A stretch of 20,989 bases of DNA, taken from NCBI GenBank assembly GCA_964463555.1, contig CAYXCW010000132.1, positions 1 through 20,989 of the forward strand, read 5' to 3'. Positions 411 to 18,590 of the stretch are shown here, one piece after another; the stretch's first letter is position 1, and each line of letters starts with the position of its first letter. This DNA is from an uncultured bacterium. GTDB taxonomy: Bacteria; Cyanobacteriota; Cyanobacteriia; Cyanobacteriales; Aerosakkonemataceae. Below the pieces are notes generated by a model that did no database searches, was not told the DNA's origin, and saw only the letters and a program-made list of their open reading frames with translations. A program made the position numbers and the translations under genes.

Positions 411-1892
<1,482 letters not shown>

Positions 1893-1894
1893 TA

Positions 1895-1978
1895 GGGAAT
1901 TGGTAATTGGTAATTGGTAATTGGCAGAACTATTGCGATTACCGATTACCGATTACCCATTACCTATTACCTATTACC
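1895..1978. repeat. Inverted pair of tandem heptamer arrays. (GGTAATT)x4 at 1895-1922 and the complementary (GATTACC/CATTACC/TATTACC)x6 at 1937-1978 are separated by a 14 nt loop. This STRR-like long hairpin lies in the atpD-atpC intercistronic spacer.
   Basis: Direct reading of the sequence. The two arrays are reverse complements apart from single-base unit variants, giving a predicted stem of about 28 bp. Confidence 0.9.
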
Positions 1979-1995
1979 AAAGGACAGAAATTGAG

Positions 1996-2412
1996 ATGAC
2001 TTTAACCGTTCGCGTAATTGCTCCAGACAAAACTGTCTGGGATTCGAGTGCTGAAGAAATTATTTTGCCCAGCACGACGGGGCAACTCGGTATCCTCAGC
2101 GGTCACGCACCTTTGTTGACTGCTTTGGATATCGGCGTGATGCGCGTCCGCACTGGCAAGGATTGGTTTCCTATTGCCTTAATGGGCGGATTTGCGGAAG
2201 TGGAAAGCAACGAAGTGACCATTTTGGTCAATGGTGCCGAACGCAGCGATAAGATTAATCTGGACGCGGCGAGGGCTGAATATACTCAAGCTCAAGAACG
2301 TTACAACCAAGTTCAAGCTGGCGGTAACCGTCAAGAGCAAATTCAAGCAACGCAAGCTTTGAAGCGCGCCCGCGCCCGATTTCAAGCCGCTGGCGGCATG
2401 GTTCAAGTTTAA
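1996..2412 (+). CDS. atpC: F0F1 ATP synthase epsilon subunit. The ORF-track start at 1921 runs back through the heptamer repeat. The ATG at 1996 ([12 protein letters not shown]...) is the likely true start.
   Basis: N-terminal beta-sandwich motif [13 protein letters not shown]...[22 protein letters not shown], which is typical of epsilon subunits. The gene is immediately downstream of the beta subunit. AAGGA lies 11 nt upstream of the ATG. Confidence 0.92.
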
Positions 2413-2441
2413 AACTTATCAAATTTGGATTTGTACGAGTG

Positions 2442-2476
2442 GAGATGCGATTAGTCGCATCTCTATTTTTTTTATG
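2442..2476 (+). terminator. Rho-independent terminator of the atpD-atpC operon
   Basis: Perfect 9 bp stem GAGATGCGA-ttag-TCGCATCTC followed by tATTTTTTTTa. It lies 30 bp after the atpC stop codon. Confidence 0.8.
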
Positions 2477-2510
2477 AAGGGGTTTGCGATCGCTTATCGG
2501 TAACGTCAGC

Positions 2511-2739
2511 CGGGGCGGGTTTATTTAATCTTTGGGTAGCCTTCAAACATTTCTGGTAAAACCCGCCCCTACGATGCACAACCTTTCGGCTCGAAATTGA
2601 TATTAGATTAAAAACGCGATCGCATCTTTACAATCATAGGACTTACGCAGAGAAACCGGGTTTCTATGAAAAATCGTCGGTTTGGCAACGAAAGATCCAC
2701 GCAGAAACCCGGTTTCTAGGATCTTCGCGCGTAAGTCCT
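2511..2739. repeat. Copy A of a nested-palindrome repeat family. Inverted repeat GGGGCGGGTTT(2513-2523)...AAACCCGCCCC(2559-2569). A second inverted repeat AGGACTTACGC(2638-2648)...GCGTAAGTCCT(2729-2739) follows it. That second repeat encloses the palindromic pair AGAAACCGGGTTTCT(2651-2665)/AGAAACCCGGTTTCT(2703-2717).
   Basis: Seen directly. The same GGGGCGGGTTT and AGAAACCGGGTTTCT modules recur at 16136-16252 and 18374-18493. The 35 bp between the inner palindromes (ctatgaaaaatcgtcggtttggcaacgaaagatccacgc) aligns with the corresponding spacer of copy C. Confidence 0.6.
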
Positions 2740-2912
2740 AAATCAATCTAATTTCTCGCTTAAAACCGACAATTTTGACCACAAACTCGGTTGCTGGTGG
2801 AAGCGATCGCATACCAAATATTAAGAAATTCTGTAAATCAAAGAAAGTTTTAAGAACTCGGTCAACTCCAAACTGAATTGCTAGTGTAGATACACATTGC
2901 TCCCTTTGGGGG

Positions 2913-5033
2913 ATGAATTTTTTTATGAAAAGTTTCAAAAAAAGCCATAAACTACTGGGGCTGGCAGCCTCGGTATTCGCTTCGATGGCAGTCACTTCTT
3001 TTACCCCTGCCAATGCTGCATCCCGCAACGAGTATCAGATACCGGAAAAACACGTCGCACAACAAGTGCAACCTGCTTCCCCCGTGTCCTTGCCAACTAA
3101 CAACGCTCAAATTCAAACGATGCAAGTGGTAGAACCTTGGGCGCTGATTCCCATTGTTATAGTGGGCGGTATTGTTATATTTGTGCCGCTATTTTTTGGC
3201 GGACTTGTAGTAATTGGCGAACGGGAAGTCGGTATAGTTGTAAAGAAATTTGCGCTTTCCGGTCGCGGACTGCCTCCAGGGCGTTTAATTGCTTTAAATG
3301 GGGAAGCTGGCTATCAAGCGGATACCCTAGCACCGGGATGGCATTGGGGTTATTGGCCTTGGCAATATGCTGTCCGCAAAGAAAACGTTACCGTCATCCC
3401 GCAAGGGGAAATTGCCTTAGTTGTCGCCGCCGATGGTGCTTCGATTCCCCTAGAAAGAATTTTGGGCAAAGTAGTAGATTGCGATAATTTTCAAGATGCG
3501 CGGAAATTCCTCACGAATGGCGGGGAAAAAGGGCGACAATTGGGTATTCTAACTGCTGGAACTTACCGCATCAATACGGCTTTGTTCAAGGTGATTACAG
3601 CAGCTAATGCCAATCAGCATGGCATGAGGCCGGAACATTTGCACATTCATAGCATTTCACCCGATAGAGTCGGAATTATTACCACTTTAGACGGCATTCC
3701 GATTGATGAAGGCGAAATTGCAGGCGCAATTATTCCCGGTCACGATAACTTCCAAAACGGTCAAAAATTCATCAATGGCGGCGGACGCCGAGGTTTGCAA
3801 GAGCAGGTATTATTATCTGGTTCGTGGAACTTAAATCCTTGGTTTGTCCAAGTTGAACAAGTCCCGATGACGGAAATTCCCATCGGCTATGTAGGCGTGG
3901 TAATTTCTTTCGTGGGGACGGCATCGGAAGATATCAGCGGTGCGGCTTTTACTCACGGTCATTTAGTCGAAACTGGACACAAAGGTGTGTGGGTGGAACC
4001 GCTTTATCCAGGCAAACATCCGCTGAATACGCGCGTGATGAAAGTGGAATTGGTGCCGACGACTAATATTGTGTTGAACTTTACGGCGCGAATTACTGGC
4101 GGACACGGGTACGATACCAATTTAACGGCGTTGAAATTACTGTCATTTGATGGATTTAGCTTTGATTTGGAAGTATTTCAAGTCATCCACATCGGTTCGA
4201 TGGATGCGCCAAAGGTGATTTCCCGCTTGGGTTCGATGCAAAATGTTGTAGATCAAGTTTTGCGTCCAATTGTGGGAAATTATTTCCGCAATTCTGCTCA
4301 AGAATACACGATTCTGGATTTCTTAACTGCTCGCAGCGAACGACAAGCAGAAGCGGCAGAATATGTAAAAGCGGCGTTGCGTTCTTATGATGTACAAGCG
4401 GTGGATACTTTGATTGGTTTGATTACACCGCCGCCGGAATTAATGCACACGCTAACTGAACGCAAGTTAGCGGAAGAACAGCGCAAAACTTACGAAGTGC
4501 AGCAGATGGCGCAACAGCAACGCCAGTTACTGGTGCGGGAAACGGCGCTGGCAGATATTCAGCAAGAAATGGTCAAAGCTGAGCAAAATGTTAGTATCGC
4601 CGAACAGAAAGCGAATGCCAACATTAAGCAAGCGACGGGTGAGGCGGAGTCTACTAAGTTAAAAGCAATGGCGGAAGCGGATGCTATTCGCGCTACGGGG
4701 AATGCGAAGGCGGAAGCTTATCGCGCTGGTGTGGAGGCGTTGGGGGCGCAGGGTTACACTTCGATGCAGTTGATGCAAATTGTAGGCGATCGCAAGGTGC
4801 GCTTAATCCCCGATGTGTTGGTTAACGGTAACAATGGCGGTAATGGTTTGGTTGATGGTTTGCTCACCATGCTGTTGTGGAATCAATCTGAAAAATCCCA
4901 TAACGGCACCCCGCCGGAAGTGCCAAAAGTATCGGGTACGGATGCAATAGTTCCTTCCCTGGATAAACCTCCGGTAATTCCGGTTGAGATTCGACCTAAA
5001 CCAAACGGTCAACCTCCATCAAGTCGTCAATAA
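2913..5033 (+). CDS. Flotillin-like SPFH/band-7 family protein. It has an N-terminal signal peptide, one TM helix and a Pro-rich C-terminal tail.
   Basis: 706 aa. The N terminus is MNFFMKSFKKSHKLLGLAASVFASMAVTSFTPANAA, followed by the TM helix LIPIVIVGGIVIFVPLFFGGLVVI. An SPFH-like core begins at EREVGIVVKKF...LAPGWHW. The C-terminal Glu/Ala/Gln-rich heptad region (AEEQRKTYEVQQMAQQQRQLL...AEADAIRATGNAKAEAYRAGVEALGAQG) is characteristic of flotillins. Confidence 0.85.
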   Translation: MNFFMKSFKKSHKLLGLAASVFASMAVTSFTPANAASRNEYQIPEKHVAQQVQPASPVSLPTNNAQIQTMQVVEPWALIPIVIVGGIVIFVPLFFGGLVVIGEREVGIVVKKFALSGRGLPPGRLIALNGEAGYQADTLAPGWHWGYWPWQYAVRKENVTVIPQGEIALVVAADGASIPLERILGKVVDCDNFQDARKFLTNGGEKGRQLGILTAGTYRINTALFKVITAANANQHGMRPEHLHIHSISPDRVGIITTLDGIPIDEGEIAGAIIPGHDNFQNGQKFINGGGRRGLQEQVLLSGSWNLNPWFVQVEQVPMTEIPIGYVGVVISFVGTASEDISGAAFTHGHLVETGHKGVWVEPLYPGKHPLNTRVMKVELVPTTNIVLNFTARITGGHGYDTNLTALKLLSFDGFSFDLEVFQVIHIGSMDAPKVISRLGSMQNVVDQVLRPIVGNYFRNSAQEYTILDFLTARSERQAEAAEYVKAALRSYDVQAVDTLIGLITPPPELMHTLTERKLAEEQRKTYEVQQMAQQQRQLLVRETALADIQQEMVKAEQNVSIAEQKANANIKQATGEAESTKLKAMAEADAIRATGNAKAEAYRAGVEALGAQGYTSMQLMQIVGDRKVRLIPDVLVNGNNGGNGLVDGLLTMLLWNQSEKSHNGTPPEVPKVSGTDAIVPSLDKPPVIPVEIRPKPNGQPPSSRQ

Positions 5034-5088
5034 TCAAGGCAGAAACCAGCGTTTTTTGAACAATATCTTCGCCAATTATCTGCAACGC

Positions 5089-5199
5089 CTACACCCTAAA
5101 GGGTGTGGCTACATAAACGAAGCCTGCCTACGCAGGCTTAAATCAAAACCAGCCCGCCTTCGCGGGCTTTGTTTGTCAAGCGCGCACCCTTCAGGGTGC
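5089..5199. repeat. Cluster of four short GC-rich hairpins with overall mirror (inverted-repeat) symmetry. H1 5089-5108 is ACACCC-taaa-GGGTGT. H2 5121-5138 is GCCTGC-ctac-GCAGGC. H3 5151-5168 is AGCCCGC-cttc-GCGGGCT and is followed by tttgtttgt. H4 5184-5199 is GCACCCT-tc-AGGGTGC.
   Basis: Read directly. H1 resembles H4 and H2 resembles H3. The reverse complement of the right half aligns with the left half, including the inter-hairpin spacers. H3 plus its T-rich tail is a plausible terminator for the flotillin gene. Confidence 0.7.
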
Positions 5200-5248
5200 C
5201 GGATTGTGGCGAAGGTATGATTAAGCCCGTATCAATCGCTAATCACTA

Positions 5249-7204
5249 ATGGCTTTAAACAATCGTTACCGCATAATTGAATTAATTGCTCAAGGCGGAT
5301 TTAGCAAAACTTTCCTGGCTGTGGATGAGCTTAAATCGCCAGCTTTAAGTTGTGTCGTTAAACAATTTTTAGTTCAAAGTCAAGAAAAAAATATAACAAT
5401 CTTTGAAGAGGAAGCAAGGAAACTGAAGGAATTGGGGCAGCATCCGCAAATTCCGGCGCTGTTAGATTTTTTTGAGTCAGATGGATTTTTTTATTGGGTG
5501 CAAGAGTTTGTTGATGGGATGAATTTGGCTAAGGTGGTTGAGTTAGAAGGCGTTCTTAATGAGTCGCAGGTTTGGGATTTGTTGAATAATCTGTTACCTG
5601 TTTTGAAGTTTATTCACGATCGTGATGTTATTCATGGGGATATTAAACCAGCAAATATTCTTCGAGTTGGAAGCAAGGCGGAGCCTTGGGGAAGGCGTTC
5701 TCCGGGCTTACCGCCTGGGAACGAGAAGGTGGGGCAGTTTGTATTGGTCGGTTTTGGAAATGGTATGGGGAGTGCGGAATATGTCGCGCCGGAACAATTG
5801 CAGGGGAAGGCGGTTTTTGCTAGCGATCTTTATAGTTTGGGGGTAACTTGTTTTTATCTGTTGACTGGGGTTTCTCCGTTTAATTTATCGCCTGGGATAT
5901 GGACAGAATACTTGCAGGAGAAAATAAGCGATCGCTTCTCCCACATCCTCGATAAACTCCTACAAAATGACCCCAAGCAACGCTTTCAATCCGCAGATGA
6001 AGTTATGAGAATAATGGGGACAAAACCCCAAATCTCAAATCTCAAATCTCAACTCTCAAATTCCCTATGTTTGCAAACTCTCACCGGGCATGGGGGTTTA
6101 TTTTCGGGGGTGAATTCTGTTGCTATTAGTCCCGATAATCAAGTTTTAGCTAGCGGTAGCGATGATAAATCAATTCGCTTGTGGAATGTTGCGACGGGGG
6201 AAGTAATAGCCACTCTCGTCGGGCATACAGGCTTTGTTCAATCTGTTGCTTTTAGCCCGGATGGAGCTATTCTCGCTTCGGGTAGCGATGATAAAATGAT
6301 TAAACTCTGGGACTTACAAACTTATCAAGAAATTTGTACCTTATCCGAACATTCGCGCGCTGTTAAATCGGTGACATTCAGTCCGATCCCCCCCCAACCC
6401 CCCCTTGCCAAGGGGGGGCAGTTCGATCCCCCACTGGCTCAGGGGGGGCAGTTCGATCCCCCCCAACCCCCCCTTGCTAAGGGGGGGCAGTTCGATCCCC
6501 CACTGGCTCAGGGGGGGCAGTTCGATCCCCCCCAACCCCCCCTTGCTAAGGGGGGGCAGTTCGATCTCCCCAACCCTGCGGATCAAAAAAGCACCGTATC
6601 CGTTGGCTTCCCCCTTTTTAAGGGGGATGGGAGGGGGATCTTCGCTAGTGGGAGTTGGGATAAAACGATTAAATTATGGGATTTGAAGGCAAAAAAGGCC
6701 ATCTGCACGCTAACTGGACATCAATTGCAGGTGACTTGCGTAAGTTTTAGCCCTGATGGACGCTATCTTGCTAGTGCCAGTTTTGACAGAACTGTACGGT
6801 TGTGGGATTTGCAAAACTGGGAATTATTGACGCATCAAATTTTTAAAGGGCATTCTTGGCCTGTTTTTTCGGTGGCTTTTAGTCCCAAGGGGGATATTCT
6901 CGCCACGGGTAGCGGTGATAACACAATTAAATTGTGGGACTTAAAAACCGGGCAAGAAATTCGCACGATTTTGGGTCACTCTTGGTCTGTGGTGGCGATC
7001 GCTTTTTCTCCGGATGGGGAGACTTTGATTAGCGGCAGTTGGGATAAAACTGTCAAACTTTGGCAGGTTAGTACTGGCAAAGAAATTGATACCCTTGCTG
7101 GGCATTTAGACGCGGTTTCCACTGTTGCCGTTAGCCCTAACGGACAAATTATTGCCAGTGGCAGCAAGGATAAAACTATCAAATTGTGGCGGCGCGATGC
7201 TTAG
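5249..7204 (+). CDS. Ser/Thr-protein-kinase-like domain fused to a C-terminal WD40 beta-propeller. The kinase motifs are degenerate, so this is a predicted pseudokinase or atypical kinase.
   Basis: 651 aa. The kinase fold retains the G-loop AQGGFSKT, the Lys in VVKQF and the APE motif YVAPEQ. The catalytic loop is [10 protein letters not shown], not HRD. The position expected for DFG reads VGFGNG. About 25 aa are inserted between the catalytic loop and that position. At least 7 WD40 repeats follow, each ending in the WD40 consensus [15 protein letters not shown]. Confidence 0.9.
6385..6645. repeat. Intragenic, in-frame palindromic repeat array inside the WD40 gene. Alternating 39 bp and 30 bp units form a 69 bp (23 codon) period present about 2.5 times, followed by a degenerate CCCCC-tttttaa-GGGGG hairpin at 6611-6627. 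The 39 bp unit is gatc-C7-aa-C7-TTGCCAA-G7-cagttc. The 30 bp unit is gatc-C5-actggctca-G7-cagttc.
   Basis: Read directly. The array encodes [23 protein letters not shown] repeats. These sit in the loop between WD40 blades, between SVTFSP and [16 protein letters not shown]. The reading frame is preserved. Confidence 0.85.
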
Positions 7205-7518
7205 TTGCTGCCAGTAAATGCCACTTCTGGGAATTTAGATTGCGCTTCTGACATGGGGCGGCGCTTGCCTTCCTCTTGCCAGTAGTCAATCACTTCGGTG
7301 GCTTTATTGAGCATTTCGACGCGGTCGATATCGGAAATCCAGTGCTTGGACTCCAACTCACTTTTTAACTCTTCCCATGCATCATTTCGAGGCCAGAAAA
7401 AGTATTTGGTTAAAGGACTGGTTCCTTTACCTACTACTTGGTCAACCGCGATCGCAACATCCTTCTCTAGCCAGAGAACCTTTAAAATAAACTTCGACAA
7501 GCACACCTCCGGGTTCAT
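7201..7518 (-). CDS. Hypothetical small protein (105 aa). It is convergent with the WD40 gene, overlapping its stop by 4 bp, and divergent from the HAD gene.
   Basis: Non-repetitive ORF with a protein-like, mixed charged/hydrophobic composition. No recognisable motif and no clear SD sequence. Confidence 0.45.
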
Positions 7519-7595
7519 CCCAGATTCTTTACAACTCTACAACCTTATTATTATATCGTATCTATTGCCGGTTGATTAAAACGGGGAAGGCAGTA

Positions 7596-8357: not shown

Positions 8358-8380
8358 GTAGCGATCGCTCAAAAACCTGT

Positions 8381-8506
8381 GGAAAATACGGATATTTTTC
8401 TAGTTACCCCGTGTTTTTCCCTGGTAATATACAGTTCATTTGTTCGCGCATCCGTATTTTCCGCAATCAAAAAGCGCGCTCGATAAAACTTTGTTGATTT
8501 ATCGAG
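8381..8506. promoter_or_regulatory. Candidate operator/promoter region upstream of the large sensor-kinase gene. It holds a perfect 13 bp inverted repeat, GGAAAATACGGAT (8381-8393) / ATCCGTATTTTCC (8450-8462). It also holds a 9 bp inverted repeat, CTCGATAAA (8480-8488) / TTTATCGAG (8498-8506). A TATAAT lies at 8562-8567.
   Basis: Seen in sequence. The 316 bp intergenic region is AT-rich. No convincing -35 element was found, so a promoter role is inferred only. Confidence 0.3.
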
Positions 8507-8673
8507 ATAATTATACATATAATAAAACAGCAATATCAAAATCTCTATTTTGAGATAGCCGTATAATTTTAACTGATTTTAGTAAGTTTTTTATTGGCTA
8601 AGGGTGCAGGCTAAGCGAGAAAAATATCGATCCTAGAAAACTATTGCCCTGAAAGTGGTGTAGGTAAGGAAAT

Positions 8674-11600
8674 ATGGCAGATAATATTGCAATTGTGGCT
8701 GGATATGCCATCCTGAAAAAAATTCATCAAGGAAGCAGAACATTAGTTTATCGAGGAGTGCGCGATCGCGACCAAAAACCCGTCATTATAAAGCTACTTA
8801 AAAACGAATATCCTACCTTCAGCGAACTGGTACAATTTCGCAATCAGTATACAATTACCAAAAACCTGGACATACCAGGAATTGTGAAACCTTTAGCTTT
8901 AGAAAAATATGGCAATGGTTACGTGCTAGTGATGGAAGACTCTGGGGATGTTTCCCTATCAGATTATATGGCTAATTTGGGGGAAAACCAGTCAGATAAT
9001 AGCTTAGCGGTTGATAAATTTTTGCCTATAGGGATCGAGATTGCAAAAATCTTGTCAGGACTCTATACAGAGCGAATTATTCACAAAGATATTAAACCTA
9101 GTAATATTCTGATTAATCCAGAAACAAAGCAGGTAAAACTGATTGACTTCGGCATCGCCTCATTATTGCCTAAAGAAAACAGCGAAATTGCTAATCCCAA
9201 GGTTTTAGAAGGAACGTTAGCGTATATTTCTCCGGAACAAACCGGCAGGATGAATCGCTGTGTTGATTATCGCACGGACTTCTACTCGCTGGGGGTGACG
9301 TTCTACGAATTACTAACCGGACAACTGCCATTTAATGCTGCCGATGCGATGGAGTTAGTTCACTGTCATATAGCTAAAATTCCTCAATCGCCAATAGAGA
9401 TAAATTCAGCAATTCCTCAAGTGGTTTCTGATATTGTAATGAAATTAATGTCGAAAACCGCTGAATTGAGATATCAGAGTGCTTTTGGGCTGGGATATGA
9501 CCTGGAAATTTGCTGGAAAAATTGGCAAGAGAAGGGCAGAATTGACCGATTTATTTTAGGGGAGAGAGATGTATGCGATCGCTTCCTCATCCCTGAAAAA
9601 CTCTACGGCAGAGAAACCGAAGTCGCTACACTATTAAATGCCTTCGATCGAGTCAGCAATCCCCCCCTTGCCAAGGGGGGGATAGAAATCATGTTAGTGG
9701 CGGGATTTTCTGGCATTGGTAAAACTGCTGTAGTCAATGAAGTTCACAAACCGATTGTCCGCCAAAGTGGTTACTTCATCAAAGGGAAATTTGACCAATT
9801 CAAACGCGATATTCCCTTCTCGGCTTGGGTGCAAGCATTTCAGAATTTGATGCGGCAATTACTGACTGAAAGCGCTGCCGATGTGCAGAAATGGCGAGCC
9901 AAAATCTTAGAGGCTTTGGGTGAAAATGGTCAAGTCATTATTGATGTCATTCCCGAACTAGAACACCTGATTGGCAAGCAGCCAGAGGTTCCAGAATTAG
10001 AAGGAAATGCCGCCCAAAATCGCTTCAACTTACTGTTTGGTAAATTTATCCGATTGTTTGCCACAAAAGAGCATCCTTTAGCGATATTCTTGGATGACTT
10101 GCAGTGGGCAGATTCGGCTTCATTGAAGCTGATACAATTGTTGATGAGCGAGACGGATAGCAGCTATATATTATTAATCGGAGCATACCGGAATAACGAA
10201 GTTTTCGCTGCCCATCCCCTCATGCTAACCTTGGATGAGATTCGCAAACAGTCAGTAACAGTCAATCAAATTACTTTAGCACCCCTAGACCAACTTGCCC
10301 TAAATCGCCTGATTGCCGATACCCTGAGTTGTCCATTAGAAACAGCATTTCCTTTGACAGAACTGGTATTCGCTAAAACCAAAGGCAATCCTTTTTTTGC
10401 AACGCAATTCCTCAAGTCTCTGCATGAGGATGGGTTAATTTCATTTGATTTTAGTTGCGGGTATTGGCAGTGCGATATTGCTCAAGTCAGGGCGCTGGCA
10501 TTGACTGATGATGTAGTTGAATTTATGGCGATTCAGCTACAAAAATTGCCTCTAAATACGCAGGATGTTTTAAAGCTTGCAGCTTGTATAGGCAACTCTT
10601 TTGACTTGGCAACCCTAGCAATAGTTTATGAAAAATCTCAAGCAGAAACGGCGGCTGACTTATGGAAAGCATTGCAAGAAGGATTGGTAATTCCCCGCAC
10701 TGAAGTATACAAGTTCTTTCACGATTCTGAATCAGTTGAAGTTGTACCAGCATCTGATTTATCAGTTACATATAAATTTTTACATGACCGAGTACAACAA
10801 GCGGCATATTTTTTAATTCCCGAATCCCAGAAACAGTTAACTCATTTAAAAATTGGGCAACTGCTGTTAAACAACACCTCTCAAGCAGAAATAGAAGAGA
10901 AAATTTTTGATATTGCCAACCAATTGAATATCGGGGCGGAGTTAATTACCCATCAGAATGAGAAAGATGAACTAGCTCAATTAAATCTTATTGCTGGACG
11001 CAAAGCTAAAGCGTCTACAGCTTATGCAGCTGCTCTCAAATATTTGACTATAGGCGTACAAATTCTAGCTAATTCTAGTTGGCAAACCCACTATGAACTG
11101 ACATTATCACTGTATAATGAAGCCGCAGAAGTGGCATTTTTAAACGGCAACTTTCAGCAGATGGAGGAATGGACTGATATTGTCATCAAACAAGCCACAA
11201 TTATTCTAGACAAGGTGAAAGTTTATCAAGTCAAAATTCAAGCTTGTATGGCACTCAACCAGCAACTTGAAGCCGTTAATATCGCCTTACCAATTCTGAA
11301 ATTATTGGGGGTGGAGTTTCCTCAAAAACCCAGCGATTCAGATGTTCAGCTAGCACTGGAGGAAACCAAGTCAAATTTGAGTGGCAAGCGAATTGAAGGC
11401 TTAATTGACTTGCCTCAAATGACAAACCCTGAGAAGCTAGCAGCGATGAAAATTCTAGCGAGTGTATTTTCTGCTGCGTTTCAAGCTATTCCAGAAATGT
11501 TTCCCCTGATTGTGTGCAAACAGGTTAATTTATCCCTTGAATATGGGAATGATTCGGGATCGGCTTTTGCTTATGCTACCTACGCATTAATTCTCTGTGG

Positions 11601-14289
11601 AATTGTGGGAGATATTGAATCTGGCTATCAAGTTGGTAAACTGGCTCTAGGTCTGCTAAACCGGGCAAATGCTAAAGAAGTTAAAACTAGAACGATGCAA
11701 ATAGTTTATAGCTTCGTCATCCATTGGCAAGAGCATCTTAATCAAACAATACAACCTTTACAAGCAGCTTATCAACATGGATTGGAAATTGGAGATGTAG
11801 AATATGCTGCCTATTGTGGAGCAGTTTACTGTCTCCATGCCTTTTTTATTGGTAAAGAACTTAGTATTTTAGAGCAAGAGATGGTAACTTACAGTGAAGC
11901 GATCGCTCACCTCAAGCAAGAAACAGCATTAAATTATCATCAAGTTTATCAACAGTTTGTAGAAAATTTATTAGGTAATTGCGTTAATCCCTGCCAGTTG
12001 ATTGGTGAGAGTTACAACGAAGATAAGATGCTGCCACTGCATCTAAAACTCAAGGATAAAACAGCAATTTCTTATTTATATTTTAACAAAAGTCTTCTTT
12101 GTTATTTGTTTGGGGAGTTAGAGGAGGCTGCTAAATTTATCGCCCTAGCCGAACAGTATTTAAATGGATTAACTGCAACCATCAATATTCCTTTGTTTTA
12201 CTTTTACGATTCTATAATCAAGTTTGCTGTATACAAAAATAATTCAAAAACTGAGCAAAATGATATTCTTAATAAGGTAAAAAACAATCAGGATAAAATT
12301 AAAAAATGGGCAGATTATAGTCCGAACAATTATTTACATAAATTTTATTTAGTTGCAGCGGAAAAGCATCGGATTCTAGGGGAAACTATTGAGGCTATAG
12401 AATGTTACGATCGTGCAATTCAACTCGCGCAAGAAAACAAATTTATTAACGAAGAAGCATTAGCTCACGAACTTGCGGCTAAATTCTATCTTTCCTGGGG
12501 TAAAGAAAAGATTGCCCAAGTCTATTTAACTGATGCTTACTATGCCTATGCTCGTTGGGGTGCTAAAGCTAAAGTTGAAGATTTAGAAAAGCGGTATCCC
12601 CAATTACTCGCTCCGATTCTGAACCAGAAAAATCACCTAAATCCAAACGAAACAATTACCCAAATGTCGAGCGGAACGATCGCATCCACCAGTTCAGATG
12701 TATCAAACATTCTGGACTTAGCGACGGTGATTAAAGCTTCGCAATCGCTTTCAGGGGAAATCGATCTCAATCGGTTGCTTTCAACATTGATGCAAGTGAC
12801 GATCGAGAATGCCGGAGCGAATAAAGGCGCTTTGATTTGGGTAGAGGGAGATGCATTAACGATCGCAGCTCAATGTGCGATCGCTCAAGGCTGCCACCTA
12901 CAGTCTACTCCGATTGATAGCTCTCAAGATATTCCCATTACCCCGATCAATTATGTGTGGCGCACAGGGGAAACTTTAGTCATTAATGATGCTACTACTG
13001 AAACAACCTTTGCTGCCGATCCCTACATTATTCAACAGCAACCTAAATCGATTTTGTGCTTGCCAATTCAACACCAAGGAAAAGCGATCGCTCTGCTTTA
13101 TCTAGAAAACAATCTAATTACCGGAGCCTTTACCCCCGCCAGATTGGAACTTTTAAAAGTCCTATCTGCCCAAGCAGCAATATCGCTATCTAACGCACAA
13201 CTGTACGCCCAACTTAAGAAAAGCGAGAATTTACTAGCAGAATACAATCGCACTTTAGAACAACAAGTTGCCGAACGAACTCAAGAACTATCCCAAGCTC
13301 TGGAACAACTCAAAAATACCCAAGACGAACTGATTCAATCGGAAAAAATGGCAGCTTTGGGACAACTCGTGGCTGGTGTTGCTCACGAAGTAAATACACC
13401 CTTGGGAGCCATTACATCCTCAATTAAAAATATTGACAATTTTTGGAAAGATCGTTTAGATAACTTAACAGTAATTTCCCAAGAACTCTCTTCAGAAATT
13501 AAACCTTATTTTTTAGCATTGGTGCAAAAATCTAGCGAACAAAATCAAACTTTATCTACGCGAGAACAACGGCAAATTAAAAAAGCTTTAGCCGAACAGC
13601 TTAAAGCGCACCAAGTCGGAAATGAAACAGCGATCGCTAATACGTTATTAAATATTGGCATCTATGATAATGTAGAAAGCTTTCTGCCTCTGTTAAACCA
13701 CCCAGATAGCCAAAAAATTCTACAAATGGTCAACCAAATAGCCAACGTACAAATTAGCACTAAAACTATTATTACAGCTGCCGAACGAGCTGCTAAAGTA
13801 GTGTTTGCTCTGAAAACTTACGCTCGCTACGATAGCATGGGAGAAAAAGTCAGAGCCAATCTTATTACTGGGATTGAAACTATCTTAACTCTCTACCAAA
13901 ACCAAACTAAGCACGGTGTAGAGATTATCCGCAACTTTGACTATTCTATACCAGATATTTCCTGCTATTTTGACGAACTCAATCAAGTCTGGACAAATTT
14001 AATTCACAATGCCTTGCAAGCAATGGATTACAAAGGTAAATTAACGATTGATGCGACTAAGCAAGAAAATCAAATTCACATCGCCATTACCGATAGCGGT
14101 ACGGGGATTCCTCCAGAAATTATGCCCAAAATATTTCAGCCTTTCTTTACGACTAAACCTGCTGGGGAAGGCAGCGGTTTGGGTTTAGACATTGTCCGGA
14201 AGATTGTTGAGAAACATGGGGGCAAAATCTCCGTGGAGTCTGTACCGGGTAAAACTACGTTTACCGTATCTTTACCGATAAACAGCTAA
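8674..14289 (+). CDS. HstK-type multidomain sensor (1871 aa). N-terminal Ser/Thr kinase domain, then a P-loop NTPase (AAA/STAND-like), a long helical/TPR-like region, a GAF domain, and a histidine kinase (HisKA plus HATPase_c).
   Basis: Kinase: VIIKLLK, HKDIKPSNIL, KLIDFGIA, AYISPEQ. NTPase: Walker A GFSGIGKT and Walker B IFLDDLQWAD. GAF-like segment around aa 1345-1500 (...LYLENNL...). H-box: VAGVAHEVNTPLGAI. HATPase G-boxes: DSGTGIPPEIMPKIFQPFFTTK and GSGLGLDIV. SD-like taaGGAAat lies before the ATG. Confidence 0.93.
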   Translation: MADNIAIVAGYAILKKIHQGSRTLVYRGVRDRDQKPVIIKLLKNEYPTFSELVQFRNQYTITKNLDIPGIVKPLALEKYGNGYVLVMEDSGDVSLSDYMANLGENQSDNSLAVDKFLPIGIEIAKILSGLYTERIIHKDIKPSNILINPETKQVKLIDFGIASLLPKENSEIANPKVLEGTLAYISPEQTGRMNRCVDYRTDFYSLGVTFYELLTGQLPFNAADAMELVHCHIAKIPQSPIEINSAIPQVVSDIVMKLMSKTAELRYQSAFGLGYDLEICWKNWQEKGRIDRFILGERDVCDRFLIPEKLYGRETEVATLLNAFDRVSNPPLAKGGIEIMLVAGFSGIGKTAVVNEVHKPIVRQSGYFIKGKFDQFKRDIPFSAWVQAFQNLMRQLLTESAADVQKWRAKILEALGENGQVIIDVIPELEHLIGKQPEVPELEGNAAQNRFNLLFGKFIRLFATKEHPLAIFLDDLQWADSASLKLIQLLMSETDSSYILLIGAYRNNEVFAAHPLMLTLDEIRKQSVTVNQITLAPLDQLALNRLIADTLSCPLETAFPLTELVFAKTKGNPFFATQFLKSLHEDGLISFDFSCGYWQCDIAQVRALALTDDVVEFMAIQLQKLPLNTQDVLKLAACIGNSFDLATLAIVYEKSQAETAADLWKALQEGLVIPRTEVYKFFHDSESVEVVPASDLSVTYKFLHDRVQQAAYFLIPESQKQLTHLKIGQLLLNNTSQAEIEEKIFDIANQLNIGAELITHQNEKDELAQLNLIAGRKAKASTAYAAALKYLTIGVQILANSSWQTHYELTLSLYNEAAEVAFLNGNFQQMEEWTDIVIKQATIILDKVKVYQVKIQACMALNQQLEAVNIALPILKLLGVEFPQKPSDSDVQLALEETKSNLSGKRIEGLIDLPQMTNPEKLAAMKILASVFSAAFQAIPEMFPLIVCKQVNLSLEYGNDSGSAFAYATYALILCGIVGDIESGYQVGKLALGLLNRANAKEVKTRTMQIVYSFVIHWQEHLNQTIQPLQAAYQHGLEIGDVEYAAYCGAVYCLHAFFIGKELSILEQEMVTYSEAIAHLKQETALNYHQVYQQFVENLLGNCVNPCQLIGESYNEDKMLPLHLKLKDKTAISYLYFNKSLLCYLFGELEEAAKFIALAEQYLNGLTATINIPLFYFYDSIIKFAVYKNNSKTEQNDILNKVKNNQDKIKKWADYSPNNYLHKFYLVAAEKHRILGETIEAIECYDRAIQLAQENKFINEEALAHELAAKFYLSWGKEKIAQVYLTDAYYAYARWGAKAKVEDLEKRYPQLLAPILNQKNHLNPNETITQMSSGTIASTSSDVSNILDLATVIKASQSLSGEIDLNRLLSTLMQVTIENAGANKGALIWVEGDALTIAAQCAIAQGCHLQSTPIDSSQDIPITPINYVWRTGETLVINDATTETTFAADPYIIQQQPKSILCLPIQHQGKAIALLYLENNLITGAFTPARLELLKVLSAQAAISLSNAQLYAQLKKSENLLAEYNRTLEQQVAERTQELSQALEQLKNTQDELIQSEKMAALGQLVAGVAHEVNTPLGAITSSIKNIDNFWKDRLDNLTVISQELSSEIKPYFLALVQKSSEQNQTLSTREQRQIKKALAEQLKAHQVGNETAIANTLLNIGIYDNVESFLPLLNHPDSQKILQMVNQIANVQISTKTIITAAERAAKVVFALKTYARYDSMGEKVRANLITGIETILTLYQNQTKHGVEIIRNFDYSIPDISCYFDELNQVWTNLIHNALQAMDYKGKLTIDATKQENQIHIAITDSGTGIPPEIMPKIFQPFFTTKPAGEGSGLGLDIVRKIVEKHGGKISVESVPGKTTFTVSLPINS
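9661..9681. repeat. Single copy of the 21 bp hairpin element CCCCCCC-TTGCCAA-GGGGGGG, inserted in frame in the sensor-kinase gene. It encodes PPLAKGG between the kinase domain and the Walker A motif.
   Basis: It is identical to the core of the 39 bp unit of the 6385-6645 array, 3.3 kb upstream in a different gene. The flanking residues (DRVSN..IEIMLVAGFSGIGKT) fit the usual linker of this protein family. Confidence 0.8.
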
Positions 14290-14320
14290 AAACCCAACAA
14301 TAAAGTGAGGAGTTTAAAAT

Positions 14321-14716
14321 ATGTCAGAAGCAGTAATTTTATGCGTCGATGATGAAGCAATAGTTCTCAAAAGTTTGTCGATAGAGCTGCAAAATGCATT
14401 TGAGGATAGCTATATTTATGAATTTGCCGAAAGCCCAGATGAAGCATTAGAAATAATTGAGGAATTCCATGAAGATAAAATTCGCATTCTTTTAATCGTC
14501 TCAGATTGGCTGATGCCAGGAATGAAAGGAGATGAATTTTTAATCCGCGTACATGAAAGATATCCAAATATTGTCAAAATTATGCTAACGGGACAAGCTG
14601 ATGAAGCAGCAGTAGAACGTGCCAAAAAAGACGCCAATCTTTATCAATGCTTGCGAAAACCTTGGAAGTCTCAAGAATTAATTGAAACGATTCGTTCTGC
14701 TTTAGCAAAATTATGA
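14321..14716 (+). CDS. Stand-alone response-regulator receiver (CheY-like REC) protein
   Basis: 131 aa. Acidic pocket VDDE, phospho-acceptor Asp in LIVSDWLMPGMKG, Thr in KIMLTGQAD, Lys in LRKPW. Strong SD GTGAGGAG lies 8 nt before the ATG. Confidence 0.92.
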   Translation: MSEAVILCVDDEAIVLKSLSIELQNAFEDSYIYEFAESPDEALEIIEEFHEDKIRILLIVSDWLMPGMKGDEFLIRVHERYPNIVKIMLTGQADEAAVERAKKDANLYQCLRKPWKSQELIETIRSALAKL

Positions 14717-16020
14717 ATCAAGTTGCCATTACAATTATCTGCGTCGATGACGATCTAACTGTTTTAAACAGTCTGAAAATAGAGCTAGAAAACAATTTTG
14801 GCGAACAATACGTCATCGAATTGGCTCAAGATGGGGAAGAAGCTTTAGAGATATTCGCCGAATTAATGGATAATGGGTACGAAATCCCCATAGTAATTTC
14901 CGACTATATTATGCCAGGGATGAAAGGGGATGAGTTACTTCGATGCATTCATGCTATTTCCCCTAAAACGCTCAAAATTATGCTGACTGGACAAGCAGAT
15001 ATAGAAGCGATGGGTAATGCGATTAATTATGCTAATTTGTATCGCTTTATTACTAAGCCTTGGCACGATAAAGATTTAGTTTTAACGGTGAAAGAAGCTA
15101 TTAATAGCTATTTTAACGAGAAAGCATTGGCAGATAAAACCACCAAGCTTTTAAAAATCAATCGCGAATTAGAGCGATTAAATCAAGCTTTTTCTCGCTT
15201 TGTTCCCAAGCAATTTCTAAAATTATTGAATAAATCTAGTATTGTTGAAATTGAATTAGGCGACGCGGTGCAGCAAAATATGTCAATATTATTTGCTGAT
15301 ATTCGCGATTTTACCAAGCTCTCGGAAAAGATGACTCCCAATGAAAATTTTAAATTTATCAACTCTTATTTAAGTTGCATGGAACCAGCCATTATTGAAA
15401 ATGGTGGATTTATTGATAAATATATTGGCGATGCAATTATGGCGCTTTTTCCTGAGAGTGCCGACGATGCTCTGAAAGCGGCAATTGGTATGCTGACTGC
15501 CTTAAATGAGTACAATCAAGACCGTCAAACTATTGGCTATCCCTCAATTAGAATTGGCATTGGAATCAATACAGGTTTGCTGATGCTGGGAACTGTAGGC
15601 GGAAAAAGTCGCATGGATGGTACGGGGATTGGTGATGCGGTAAATTTGGCTTCTCGCGTCGAATCTCTAACTAAAGATTACGGGGTGTCGCTGTTAATTA
15701 CGCAACAAACTTTTGAACTATTGCAAGATCCAAATCGGTACGCACTGCGCCTAATTGACCGAGTCCAAGTTAAAGGGAAATCTGAATTGGTCACAGTTTA
15801 TGAAGTATTTGAAACCGATCTACCTACGATCAGAGAAGCAAAGTTAGCAAATAAGACAAAATTTGAAGAAGCCTGGTTACTTTATAATCAGGCTTCTTTT
15901 CCAGCAGCAGCAAAATTGTTTAGGCATTGCTTGTGCCAAAATCCGGGCGATCGCGTGGCGCAAATTTATCTCGAACGCTGTCAAAATAATTTTAACTATC
16001 ATCTAGATGAAGCTGTTTGA
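14713..16020 (+). CDS. Response-regulator receiver fused to a class III nucleotidyl (adenylate/guanylate) cyclase catalytic domain
   Basis: 435 aa. The N-terminal REC is paralogous to the preceding gene (VDDD, VISDYIMPGMKG, KIMLTGQAD, ITKPW). The cyclase motifs are FADIRDFT, YIGDAIMALF, IGIGINTG and GIGDAVNLASRVE. Its start overlaps the upstream stop in ATGA (14713-14716), consistent with translational coupling. Confidence 0.92.
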   Translation: MNQVAITIICVDDDLTVLNSLKIELENNFGEQYVIELAQDGEEALEIFAELMDNGYEIPIVISDYIMPGMKGDELLRCIHAISPKTLKIMLTGQADIEAMGNAINYANLYRFITKPWHDKDLVLTVKEAINSYFNEKALADKTTKLLKINRELERLNQAFSRFVPKQFLKLLNKSSIVEIELGDAVQQNMSILFADIRDFTKLSEKMTPNENFKFINSYLSCMEPAIIENGGFIDKYIGDAIMALFPESADDALKAAIGMLTALNEYNQDRQTIGYPSIRIGIGINTGLLMLGTVGGKSRMDGTGIGDAVNLASRVESLTKDYGVSLLITQQTFELLQDPNRYALRLIDRVQVKGKSELVTVYEVFETDLPTIREAKLANKTKFEEAWLLYNQASFPAAAKLFRHCLCQNPGDRVAQIYLERCQNNFNYHLDEAV

Positions 16021-16069
16021 AATTTGTTAATTGCTAATTGTTAATTGCTAATTGCTAATTGTCAATTGC
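16021..16069. repeat. Tandem heptamer array of 7 units (AATTTGT TAATTGC TAATTGT TAATTGC TAATTGC TAATTGT CAATTGC). It is a one-base variant of the GGTAATT family and starts directly after the cyclase stop codon.
   Basis: Read directly. It is roughly the inverted partner of the (ATTACC)n array at 16302-16322, on the far side of element B. Confidence 0.85.
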
Positions 16070-16099
16070 CTCCTCCAGCAGCAATTAGCTATGATCGCT

Positions 16100-16296
16100 T
16101 ATATCATGTCCGGTAGCATCGGTAGCTGCACGTCCGGGGCGGGTTTAAAAAATTCCTCGATGGCAGAAACCGGGTTTCTTAGTATATTTTAGTTTCCAAG
16201 TCGAAAATTAATCGATAGAAACCCGGTTTCTTTAGATAAAACCCGCCCCTACAACATTAAAAATTATACACAACCTATGCTCTTAGACATGATATA
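16100..16296. mobile_element. Copy B of the nested-palindrome element; MITE-like, with no coding capacity. Three layers of inverted repeats. Outermost, a terminal inverted repeat: TATATCATGTC (16100-16110) / GACATGATATA (16286-16296). Inside that, GGGGCGGGTTT (16136-16146) / AAACCCGCCCC (16240-16250). Innermost, AGAAACCGGGTTTCT (16165-16179) / AGAAACCCGGTTTCT (16217-16231).
   Basis: Seen directly. The 11 bp terminal inverted repeats are perfect. The element lies between convergent genes and is bracketed by inverted heptamer arrays. Confidence 0.65.
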
Positions 16297-16301
16297 ACTC
16301 C

Positions 16302-16322
16302 GATTACCAATTACCCATTACC
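16302..16322. repeat. (GATTACC AATTACC CATTACC) heptamer array, the complement orientation of GGTAATT. It is followed by the aactattgc motif also seen in the loop of the 1895-1978 hairpin.
   Basis: Read directly. Confidence 0.8.
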
Positions 16323-16325
16323 AAA

Positions 16326-17129
16326 CTATTGCAATTTCAAAAATTTCTCCAATGCTGCGACCATATTAGGAGGCCAACGACGGATATTTTTGACCCAATC
16401 TATATCTTTATAACGCGCGTCCAGTCCGACAGCCGCTACCCAGTTACTTTCTGCTTCGCCTTGCTTTCCTTCTACCCAAAGTGCAGCACTGAGAGCAGCT
16501 CGCACATCGGGGAACATGCTATATTTGCGAGCAATATTTTTCAACGTGCGAATCGCCTCTTGGTTTTGACCTGTTTGATACAATGCTAGGGCATAATTGG
16601 CTCTAGCAAAGGCGAAATTAGGGGCGATTTCTGTGGCTTTTTGGTAATCAGCGATCGCATCTTCCCAATTCCCTAACCCGGCGCTGGCATTTCCCCGGTT
16701 ATTATATGCCATTGCATCGTTGGGATTGATTTCCAAAACGCGATTGTAGTCGGCAATTGCTTCTGTAAATCTTCCCAATCCTTCTAACGCCGCACCGCGA
16801 TTTAAATAAGGATCGGCAGCATTAGGGGCGAGTTCTATTGATTGATTGAAATCGGCGATCGCATCTTCTAATTTATTCTGACTGGTTCGAGAATTTCCCC
16901 GATTGCTCCAAACCGCCGGATTTGTGGGAAATTTTTCGATTAACTGCGTCCAGTATGTTTCTGCTGTGGCAAAATCGCCTTTATCCGTCGCATCGAAGGC
17001 TTTCTGCGCCAGAGCATCCCCTGCTTGCAACTCTGCTTCTGTAATTGTGGGGGCTGTTTGAGTTTGCGCGATCGCAGGCATTCCCCATAGCAACAGAATG
17101 CTTACTAAAGTCAGAATTAAGCGTATCAT
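16326..17129 (-). CDS. Exported TPR-repeat protein
   Basis: 267 aa. Signal peptide MIRLILTLVSILLLWGMPAIAQTQ. Multiple 34-aa TPR units with the pattern A/P..N..A..NRG.A......A..DY..A...NP (e.g. AIADYNRVLEINPNDAMAYNNRGNA). Confidence 0.85.
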   Translation of the reverse strand: MIRLILTLVSILLLWGMPAIAQTQTAPTITEAELQAGDALAQKAFDATDKGDFATAETYWTQLIEKFPTNPAVWSNRGNSRTSQNKLEDAIADFNQSIELAPNAADPYLNRGAALEGLGRFTEAIADYNRVLEINPNDAMAYNNRGNASAGLGNWEDAIADYQKATEIAPNFAFARANYALALYQTGQNQEAIRTLKNIARKYSMFPDVRAALSAALWVEGKQGEAESNWVAAVGLDARYKDIDWVKNIRRWPPNMVAALEKFLKLQ

Positions 17130-17221
17130 TTATTAACCGCTGACTATCAACTGAGTTAATTTTATTTTCCCATACATTGTCTACCCGGTCAATTCGTTTT
17201 AAACTTTAAATAATAAATTTT

Positions 17222-18268
17222 TCATGACTTATATTGTATGTTATTAACTGCAACTGGGATGCCGCCTTGATTGAGAGATGCGGTTAAAGCGGTAAGAATT
17301 TCCACGAGTTGAGTGCCGATCCAACCCGAGGAAATCGAGTCAGGTTTATTTTGAATCACGCTGGAGAGGAAGCGATCGCAAACTTTTTTCAATGGTTCTG
17401 TTGGTTCTAGCTTTAACACTTTGCAGCGTTGATTAATGGGAATAAATAGCTCGTCTTTAACTGCAAAATTTCCATATTGAATTGTTAAAGGAGCATCAAC
17501 AGACATTTCGTCAAAAATTAACGTGCCGTTGCTTCCTACTACTGCTAAACGCCGCTGTTTATCGGGATTGAGCCAACAGAGGTGAATTGTAGCTTGAAAC
17601 CCGCTTTTGTAAGTCAGATTAACCCAAACTAAATCGTGTAAATTTTGGATGGGAGGATGGCTTTGATTTTGTTGCAACCAAACTCTACCTGTAGCTTGCA
17701 CTTGGATCGGAATTTCACCCAGCCAAGTGTTGAAAATGGCGATATCGTGAATCGCTAAATCCCACAAAGCATCAACATCGTAGCGCACGGGGCCTAAATT
17801 AGTTCGGGTAGCGTAGCCATAGCGCAAGTCTCCTAATATACCCGTTGCCAAAACAGTTTTGCCTCGCTCTACAGCCGGATGGAATAAATAAGTGTGGTCA
17901 ACGAAGAGTTGGCGCTGCTGTTTTTCGGCTAATCGACACAGTTCGACGCATTCTGTAGGATCTAGGGTTAAAGGTTTTTCGGTGAAAACGTGGTAACCTT
18001 GCTCCAGAGCGTCGGCGATCAAATTGTAATGGGTAGATGCTGGAGTGACGATCGCTACCGCATCGAGTCCGGGTAATTGTCGCACGGTTGCCCAGTCGGT
18101 GGTTAGAACTACAGTATCGTTTAACTCAAAGCGCGATCGCAAATCGGCTAACCGCTCCTCGTTTGAATCTACCACGGCTACCAAAGTTGCTTGGGGATGT
18201 GCCAAAAAATTTCGCACCAAGTGTACTCCCCAACGTCCAGCCCCTAATACAGCGATTTTTATCGTCAT
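17222..18268 (-). CDS. Gfo/Idh/MocA-family NAD(P)-dependent oxidoreductase. The ORF-track start at 18397 is an artefact of reading back through the heptamer array and element C. The true start is the ATG at 18266-18268 (MTIKIAVLGAGRWG...).
   Basis: N-terminal Rossmann motif KIAVLGAGRWG and the family-typical segment EKPLTLDPTECVEL (EKP motif). The upstream track extension encodes only the repeat-derived YQLPITN peptide. Confidence 0.85.
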   Translation of the reverse strand: MTIKIAVLGAGRWGVHLVRNFLAHPQATLVAVVDSNEERLADLRSRFELNDTVVLTTDWATVRQLPGLDAVAIVTPASTHYNLIADALEQGYHVFTEKPLTLDPTECVELCRLAEKQQRQLFVDHTYLFHPAVERGKTVLATGILGDLRYGYATRTNLGPVRYDVDALWDLAIHDIAIFNTWLGEIPIQVQATGRVWLQQNQSHPPIQNLHDLVWVNLTYKSGFQATIHLCWLNPDKQRRLAVVGSNGTLIFDEMSVDAPLTIQYGNFAVKDELFIPINQRCKVLKLEPTEPLKKVCDRFLSSVIQNKPDSISSGWIGTQLVEILTALTASLNQGGIPVAVNNIQYKS

Positions 18269-18326
18269 TGGTAATTGGTAATTGGTAATTGGTAATTGGT
18301 AATTGGTAATTGGTAGTTGGTAATTG
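18268..18326. repeat. (TTGGTAA)x8 tandem heptamer array plus one degenerate unit. It abuts the start codon of the oxidoreductase gene.
   Basis: Read directly. It is the inverted partner of the 18549-18590 array. Confidence 0.9.
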
Positions 18327-18529
18327 ATAATATCATGTCTGTTAGCAATGGTTATGCAAGTGTTTTTAATGCTGTAGGGGCGGGTTTTACCAATCAATTC
18401 TTGGAAAGAAACCGGGTTTCTATGAAAAATCTTTGAGCAAGGAAAGAGATCTACAAAGAAACCCGGTTTCTGGATTCGTTAAACCAGCCCCAGGTTACGC
18501 TAACGATGCCGCCAAACATGATATAATTC
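18327..18529. mobile_element. Copy C of the nested-palindrome element; MITE-like. Terminal inverted repeat ATAATATCATGTC (18327-18339) / ACATGATATAATT (18517-18529). Inside it, GTAGGGGCGGGTTTT (18374-18388) with a degenerate partner AAACCAGCCCC (18481-18491), and AGAAACCGGGTTTCT (18407-18421) / AGAAACCCGGTTTCT (18457-18471).
   Basis: Seen directly. Its module order and terminal inverted repeats match copy B. Its inner spacer matches copy A. It occupies the rnc-to-oxidoreductase intergenic space on the minus strand. Confidence 0.65.
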
Positions 18530-18548
18530 CTAATTGTAAAGGCGATTC

Positions 18549-18590
18549 ATTACCAATTACCAATTACCGATTACCCATTAGCCATTAGCT
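18549..18590. repeat. (ATTACCA ATTACCA ATTACCG ATTACCC ATTAGCC ATTAGCT) heptamer array. It overlaps the 3' end of rnc.
   Basis: Read directly. The last rnc codons (...K-L-M-A-N-G-stop, 18571-18591) are read from the repeat units. Confidence 0.85.

Follow-up and report, generated by a model that had tools for sequence, protein, structure and literature searches.

Heptamer-repeat hairpins and a T-N-A-targeting miniature transposable element probably overlap by chance in a filamentous cyanobacterium

Introduction

Hairpins made of tandem heptamers, the short tandemly repeated repetitive (STRR) sequences, are known from between genes of Nostoc, Anabaena, and Lyngbya; for those separating hupS and hupL, including in Lyngbya, a part in transcript stability or translational coupling has been proposed (PMC2670836). 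Here, we analyze a 20,989-nt stretch of DNA (contig CAYXCW010000132.1; hereafter "the window") in which arrays of 7-nt units occur together with 2 MITEs (miniature inverted-repeat transposable elements), B and C, and a further pair of arrays without an element occupies the spacer between atpD and atpC. As in the hupS-hupL hairpins, the tandem 7-nt spacer units often form inverted pairs and hairpins between co-oriented genes, but the units (GTAATTG, TAATTGC, and GCTAATG) are not the classical ones of STRR1-3, and the host is a Microseira-like oscillatorian and not a heterocyst former. A first-pass annotation had offered 2 readings of this layout, i.e., preferential insertion of the elements into hairpin loops or a composite element that has heptamer arrays as its outer layer and can gain or lose its core. 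It seems very likely to us that 2 unrelated kinds of repeat overlap instead: STRR-like hairpins and a MITE that targets T-N-A and lands in or beside them by chance.

The canonical units of STRR1-3 are CCCCAGT, TTGGTCA, and CAACAGT. The window units GTAATTG, TAATTGC, and ATTACCA are none of these, and the window arrays are therefore classed as STRR-like, while ACTGGGG (the complement of CCCCAGT) and TGACCAA were found in other loci that we sampled. A further parallel in the literature is the Nostoc tRNA-Leu(UAA) intron, whose P6b stem consists of 7-nt repeats that have switched class and recurrently taken up insertions (PMC4476775). In P6b, too, the stem is made of complementary 7-nt repeats whose class is replaced in place between lineages and whose copy number shifts on both arms, and additional sequence has entered the hairpin at a position that recurs. 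However, the hairpins of P6b and of RNase P RNA are parts of functional RNAs, whereas the window hairpins lie in mRNA spacers and the insert is a MITE with a target duplication.

On the side of mobile elements, Nezha is a cyanobacterial MITE of 130 to 170 bp for which mobility has been argued from empty and filled sites (PMC3184786). The Nezha family is characterized by terminal and direct repeats that it has in common with ISNpu3. B and C share with Nezha and the MITEs of Anabaena PCC 7120 the terminal inverted repeats, small size, non-coding sequence folding strongly as a palindrome, many copies, and empty as well as filled sites, a likeness that for Nezha is one of published size and general features (PMC3184786). 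Unlike Nezha and Tourist-type MITEs, the subfamily of B and C has a second hairpin module nested at its center, and no autonomous partner was found in the loci and plasmids searched. PIF/Harbinger- or IS5-type transposases mobilize Tourist-type MITEs, and Tourist/Harbinger elements generate a 3-bp T-N-A duplication, as in the B/C family. Insertion sequences (ISs) that target repetitive extragenic palindromic (REP) sequences or bacterial interspersed mosaic elements (BIMEs) likewise sit within repeated extragenic hairpins, but these are site-specific for the palindrome, whereas the B/C MITE has a T-N-A target and shows no excess in hairpins. Finally, the small dispersed repeats of Nostoc punctiforme, said to have been described by Elhai et al. 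in 2008, are reportedly 21 to 27 nt long and insert without target duplication. By this account, they resemble our elements as small hairpin repeats nested in other repeats (compare the K module described below) and differ from the 100- to 190-nt B/C and D elements with their clear duplications.

Results

Element C entered an existing hairpin between rnc and an oxidoreductase gene

Site C lies between the gene for RNase III (rnc; minus strand, stop codon at 18571-18573, inside an array arm) and that for a GFO/IDH/MocA oxidoreductase (minus strand, ATG at 18266-18268, beside the other arm), and its 2 arms are 85% to 93% complementary over 37 to 39 nt (Table 1). All 4 close relatives compared here, L001 to L004, have a hairpin in this spacer that reads (GCTAATG)n, gctagccgttaca, and (ATTAGCA)n right before the ATG and contains no element, which identifies C as a later insertion. 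The element is present at this site in L218 and L219, which belong to the same population as the window, and in L220 of that population as far as the contig extends. The comparison of orthologous loci that the first-pass annotation suggested as a check shows both empty and filled states. In 2 other samples of this population, the C-bearing site has one CAATTAC unit fewer, i.e., array copy number varies. The target of C was a TAA within a degenerate heptamer unit of one arm, approximately one unit from the apex, and the ancestral apex survives beside the element (cgcctttaca in the window, gccgttaca in the relatives). C therefore entered an arm and not the loop, contrary to the proposed insertion into hairpin loops. 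When C and one TAA are removed in silico, the hairpin is restored with a folding energy of -54 kcal/mol.

Table 1. Positions of arrays, hairpin parts, and mobile elements in the window.
Feature	Position	Strand	Description
Atp hairpin, left arm	1889..1924	+	(GTAATTG) x 5.1; begins at atpD stop codon
Atp hairpin, loop (cagaactattg)	1925..1935	+	contains one of the 7 window copies of AACTATTGC
Atp hairpin, right arm	1936..1978	+	(CGATTAC) x 6.1; ends 17 nt upstream of the atpC ATG at 1996
Element A	2490..2612	+	old degenerate copy of the B/C family; G stem kept, no K module, no arrays around
Family D MITE, ~104 nt	2637..2740	+	terminal repeat TAGGACTTACGC; K core AGAAACCGGGTTTCT ... AGAAACCCGGTTTCT; flanks AATCA/AATCA
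Site B, cyclase-side array	16024..16069	+	(TAATTGC/TAATTGT) x 6.6; lineage-specific, absent from L004
Inverted 9-nt partner GCAATTAGC to the array at 16024-16069	16081..16089	+	weak local hairpin
MITE B, 193 nt	16102..16294	+	ends TATCATGTCCGG and TTAGACATGATA; flanks TTA (16099-16101) and TAA (16295-16297)
Site B, ancestral single array	16303..16324	+	(ATTACCA) x 3.1; beside TPR gene stop codon
AACTATTGC	16324..16332	+	reverse complement of the final CAA (Gln) codon and TAG stop of the TPR gene plus 2 downstream bases
Site C, hairpin arm	18267..18331	+	(ATTGGTA) x 9.3; adjoins/includes oxidoreductase ATG
MITE C, 193 nt	18331..18523	+	perfect TAA/TAA duplication (18328-18330, 18524-18526)
Site C, ancestral apex remnant ttcctaattgtaaaggcgatt	18527..18547	+	matched against gctaattgtaacggctagcc in relatives
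Site C, other hairpin arm	18548..18587	+	(CATTACC) x 5.7; overlaps 3' codons and stop of RNase III gene

The window comes from a Microseira-like filamentous cyanobacterium and is near-identical to ENA contig ERZ1066112 NODE_501. Among GTDB genomes, those of Microseira species, UBA11372, and a Phormidiaceae metagenome-assembled genome come closest, at approximately 90% protein identity. A protein scan with the oxidoreductase as query returned 80 loci (L001 to L080) that span both site B and site C, of which the 4 from close Microseira-like relatives served as orthologous-site comparison. An exact-protein look-up with the oxidoreductase sequence found no record, and Rfam at gathering threshold reported 0 families in the window. 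All array positions were called by Tandem Repeats Finder at period 7, and the 6 arrays of the window comprise 3.1 to 9.3 copies with 84% to 94% matches.

Several further features of this spacer were observed. The heptamer array supplies coding sequence at 18571-18590, where it encodes the last residues and the stop codon of RNase III (...KLMANG, stop); the L001 protein ends ...KANG, as read by eye from the DNA and not from a tool translation. At the other end, the oxidoreductase ATG falls within the last degenerate unit (CAATGAC, 18266-18272). In the 400 nt upstream of this ATG, inspected in L001 to L080, period-7 arrays occupy the spacer in 51 of the 75 loci with rnc directly upstream of the oxidoreductase gene, compared to 26% of other gaps, and usually end no more than 20 nt from the ATG, with units that vary by genus. 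The idea of a conserved RNase III substrate following rnc is not supported: 29% of the 150-nt regions upstream of the oxidoreductase gene fold with z < -3, versus 21% of control spacers, which is no significant difference (p = 0.11). Moreover, an inverted heptamer pair lies inside the RNase P RNA gene rnpB (RF00010), which is found just past the right end of the window-equivalent region at L002 7027-7483 and also in L018 and L080; the arms of the pair are at L002 7162-7185 and 7204-7238, and L001, L003, and L004 have equivalent pairs.

The atpD-atpC spacer holds an empty hairpin of the same class

The facing arrays between atpD (444-1892) and atpC (1996-2412) were annotated as an apparently empty version of the filled sites, and this is borne out in the sense that they form an empty hairpin of the same class as site C. 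They fold as a single long hairpin with a loop of approximately 11 nt (DNA energy of -24.4 kcal/mol, z = -8.5), a fold that was matched by 0 of 200 shuffles. The hairpin is also present in 5 relatives, again without an element, with GCTAATG/ATTAGCA units and a different loop, i.e., the loop sequence is not kept. Its position is held across genera: single-sequence folds, by which these spacers were compared, give an atp hairpin built from other units in Argonema as well as Coleofasciculus and a partial one in Crinalium, and the Phormidium LEGE 05292 spacer has a GC hairpin plus one array. RNAalifold, applied to the atp spacers of 6 lineages, was uninformative, since the alignment puts the tandem repeats out of register.

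The 2 unlinked hairpins at atp and site C have both switched their main unit, which is GGTAATT/AATTACC in the window and GCTAATG/ATTAGCA in the relatives (L001 to L004 and L086 to L090), and at each of them both arms changed together. On the rnc-side arm of site C in the window, the units farthest from the apex are still of the GCTAATG type.

B and C belong to a MITE family that targets T-N-A

B and C are of exactly the same length and have the same ends (TATCATGTC... and ...GACATGATA). Inside, each carries a G stem (GGGGCGGGTTT/AAACCCGCCCC; at 16136-16146 and 16239-16249 in B and at 18377-18387 and 18481-18491 in C) and a K module of 67 nt with the central pair AGAAACCGGGTTTCT ... AGAAACCCGGTTTCT (16165-16231 in B and 18407-18471 in C). 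We scanned metagenomes with one MITE end plus the G stem, which gave at least 119 contig stretches that resolve into 67 to 69 independent sites; all counts of MITE sites given here and below hold among the matches listed. The terminal inverted repeats TATCATGTCCG and CGGACATGATA are common to B, C, and 67 other sites, and the canonical element, approximately 130 nt long, includes the G stem and lacks the K module. Identical 3-nt flanks were found at 52 of the 67 sites and are invariably T-N-A (TTA 20, TAA 13, TGA 13, and TCA 6). Looking for target-site duplications, as the first-pass annotation had advised, thus gave a clear answer for C and most of the family but an imperfect one for B.

With terminal repeats, a 3-bp duplication, lengths of 130 to 193 nt, non-coding sequence, at least 67 unique sites, and empty as well as filled orthologous sites, the family has the hallmarks of MITEs, and B and C appear to be conventional copies mobilized by a transposase. 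The K-bearing 193-nt form is a subfamily that transposes as a unit: copies 90% to 91% identical to B are found at 2 other loci (L115 and L142), where they are flanked by perfect duplications and have no arrays.

The window contains 2 further elements downstream of atpC (Table 1). In element A, the G stem is at 2512-2522 and 2559-2569, and its terminal repeats are still recognizable in relatives. The K core also occurs on its own in the family D element, a different MITE that is missing from the orthologous site in relatives. Another MITE with ends CATATGATGTCCG ... CGAACATCATATC is present in 1 to 3 tandem copies downstream of atpC in L086 to L088 (L086 1990-2165) and absent from the window. 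Furthermore, Nostoc sp. CreGUA01 (L033) carries 2 MITEs of approximately 85 nt (10320-10410 and 13999-14095) that have the ends TATCATGTC ... GACATGATA and T-N-A flanks around a different interior without G stem. Given these shared ends and flanks, the clientele of the transposase appears to reach Nostoc.

MITE insertions are not enriched near heptamer arrays

In 1.45 Mb of related cyanobacterial loci, we found 547 period-7 arrays that come from 76 of 81 sources. Arrays are contained in 26% of intergenic gaps; of the arrays, 13% form one arm of an empty hairpin. Where adjacent arrays are separated by at most 40 nt, they are inverted in 36 cases versus direct in 5, so inverted pairs are far from rare, as the association seen by the first-pass annotation presupposed; the inference of an insertion preference fails nonetheless. 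Of the 67 MITE sites, 7 (10.4%) lie inside an array or no farther than 30 nt from one, compared to 9.7% of non-coding T-N-A positions and 7.6% of all non-coding positions on the same contigs, and the remaining 60 copies have no array within that distance. The 7 sites comprise one within an inverted pair (L139), 2 within direct arrays (L096 and L118), and 4 with a one-sided array. Likewise, just 1 of 16 family D sites is near an array. A concentration of insertions at a fixed position of the palindrome, as in the targeting of REP sequences, is not apparent with 1 of 67 in an inverted pair and C in an arm. Where inverted pairs of other genera do contain inserts, the intervening sequences are heterogeneous (e.g., part of rnpB) and include no recognizable MITEs.

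Site B is an old insertion beside a single array

The first-pass annotation had described array, element, and inverted array at both B and C, and both elements as sitting inside array hairpins. This holds for C, which entered an existing hairpin, but not for B. The 2 arrays at site B differ in unit (TAATTGC/TAATTGT on the left and 3.1 units of the complement of TAATTGG on the right), were not detected as an inverted pair in the repeat search, and pair poorly in the fold; instead, the 16024-16069 array pairs weakly with the 9-nt GCAATTAGC (z = -2.5). An intercistronic stem formed by an inverted pair, as present at atp (z = -8.5) and C, is thus not found for the arrays of B.

The ages of the arrays differ as well. 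L002, L003, and L004 all have the TPR-side array, in unpaired form, and L004 has an orthologous MITE at the identical position to B, without K module and without the far-side array. We therefore consider B an old insertion beside a single array, with the cyclase-side array as a later and lineage-specific addition. L002 has no MITE at this site, whereas L001 has one directly at the TPR stop codon, with 2.5 heptamer units just past it. Overall, site B was partly over-read in the first-pass annotation, whose observation is otherwise real and is partly confirmed here.

The motif aactattgc overlaps a stop codon at site B and does not show homology of the sites

The motif aactattgc (AACTATTGC) in the atp loop and beside the right array of B had been taken as support for homology between these sites, which we find untenable. 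It occurs 7 times in the window (at 1928, 4944, 8639, 10618, 14357, 15716, and 16324) with unrelated flanks, and 4 copies are in coding sequence while one more, at 16324, overlaps the stop codon of the TPR gene (16326-17129, minus strand). This latter copy is kept in TPR orthologues without MITE, and the atp loops of relatives lack the motif. As an observation in its own right, 7 copies are an excess over the 0.25 expected from shuffles and the 0.4 to 1.5 per 21 kb seen in related data.

Another repeat of the window is a 21-nt G7/C7 palindrome, CCCCCCCTTGCCAAGGGGGGG, which together with linked CAGTTCGATCCCCC units forms a tandem repeat of 69-nt period and 2.8 copies at 6379-6595, within the 5249-7204 open reading frame, which encodes a Ser/Thr kinase-WD40 protein. 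CCCCCCCTTGCCAAGGGGGGG recurs in identical form at 9661-9681, within a large open reading frame (8674-14289).

Discussion

The repeats at these sites comprise hairpins of the STRR-like kind and a MITE that adds a new member to a known type. In the scenario that we favor, heptamer arrays would be long-standing residents of short spacers in filamentous cyanobacteria, such as those between atpD and atpC or between rnc and the oxidoreductase gene, where they may grow and shrink by slippage and turn over their unit type while the arms remain complementary. A transposase acting in trans and cutting T-N-A with a 3-bp stagger would mobilize the MITE. Some insertions would then hit arrays by chance, because the GGTAATT unit contains TAA and arrays make up a large share of non-coding DNA. 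C landed within one arm of a hairpin that was already in place, at a TAA, and B beside a single ancestral array, with a second, different array now on its other side. What carries this scenario are empty and filled orthologous sites, target duplication, lack of enrichment near arrays, and mobility of the element where there are no arrays, all of which are shown here.

A larger mobile unit, with the arrays as its outermost part and a core that can be gained or lost, was suggested by the layout of array, element, and inverted array appearing twice within 2.3 kb, but we give this reading next to no credence and regard it as refuted: the empty orthologous hairpins at C and atp are older than the core, the duplications abut the terminal repeats and thus lie inside the arrays, the great majority of copies including near-identical ones of B are free of arrays, and array units at one site vary between species while the flanking genes are conserved. 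The inverse dependence, in which a palindromic MITE stalls replication and nucleates arrays by slippage, would explain the 16024-16069 array, given that this array is missing from L004 despite the same MITE insertion and that L001 has its few heptamer units just beyond its MITE. Nevertheless, we deem it distinctly unlikely, since the majority of MITE copies lack an adjacent array, those arrays found at C and beside the TPR gene clearly predate the MITE, and a quarter of all intergenic gaps hold arrays regardless of MITEs.

Alternatively, the transposase or the context of the replication fork might favor extruded hairpins or cruciforms, similar to ISs at REP sequences. The 2 window copies touching arrays, the L139 copy inside an inverted pair, and the L096 and L118 copies inside direct arrays would fit such targeting by structure. 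It appears very improbable, however, when the observed frequency near arrays hardly differs from the expected one, direct and hence hairpin-free arrays received 2 copies and inverted pairs only one, C sits in an arm with a duplication defined by the sequence T-N-A, and family D similarly lacks any association with arrays. A further idea is that the hairpins are RNA elements selected for their structure at fixed intercistronic positions such as atpD-atpC and the spacer following rnc, with arms rewritten in concert upon a switch of unit type, and that a palindromic MITE near the apex is tolerated or weakly favored because it merely lengthens the hairpin. We regard this as rather unlikely, although a weak structural bias could escape a census of 67 sites on short-read contigs.

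Landing by chance remains our preferred explanation, and several points that weigh against it should be considered. The flanks of B, TTA and TAA, are an inexact duplication. Contigs from short-read metagenomes may break at long hairpins or MITEs and under-count insertions, even if the null was drawn from the same contigs, and the scanning pattern required the G stem and therefore sampled only part of the MITE family. In the window, 2 of 3 copies touch arrays, which at a background of 10% has p of approximately 0.03, albeit in a window that was chosen for this layout. Lastly, neither 2.4 Mb of fetched loci nor the PLSDB plasmids yielded an autonomous IS with B/C ends, and the plasmids also gave no match to the MITE consensus; pairs of terminal repeats 500 to 4000 nt apart enclose ordinary genes or belong to 2 separate MITEs. 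For this reason, the transposase is only inferred, and the T-N-A duplication together with general knowledge points to an IS5 or PIF/Harbinger-like enzyme.

If true, either of the original readings would have meant a new targeting mechanism or a new layered class of mobile elements in cyanobacteria, and neither holds. What emerges is a well-defined T-N-A MITE family that is widespread in oscillatorian and some Nostoc genomes and of which we found no published description; a full-text literature search with the repeat sequences gave only unrelated primer matches. Site C provides a clean example of empty versus filled states for a MITE within a heptamer hairpin. For annotation, overlaps between arrays and MITEs are to be expected by chance, given that roughly one in four of the sampled intergenic gaps contains an array. 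The heptamer hairpins themselves stay in place even as their units are replaced, and, judging from the literature, they would likely act as RNA hairpins between cistrons in transcript stability, processing, or translational coupling.

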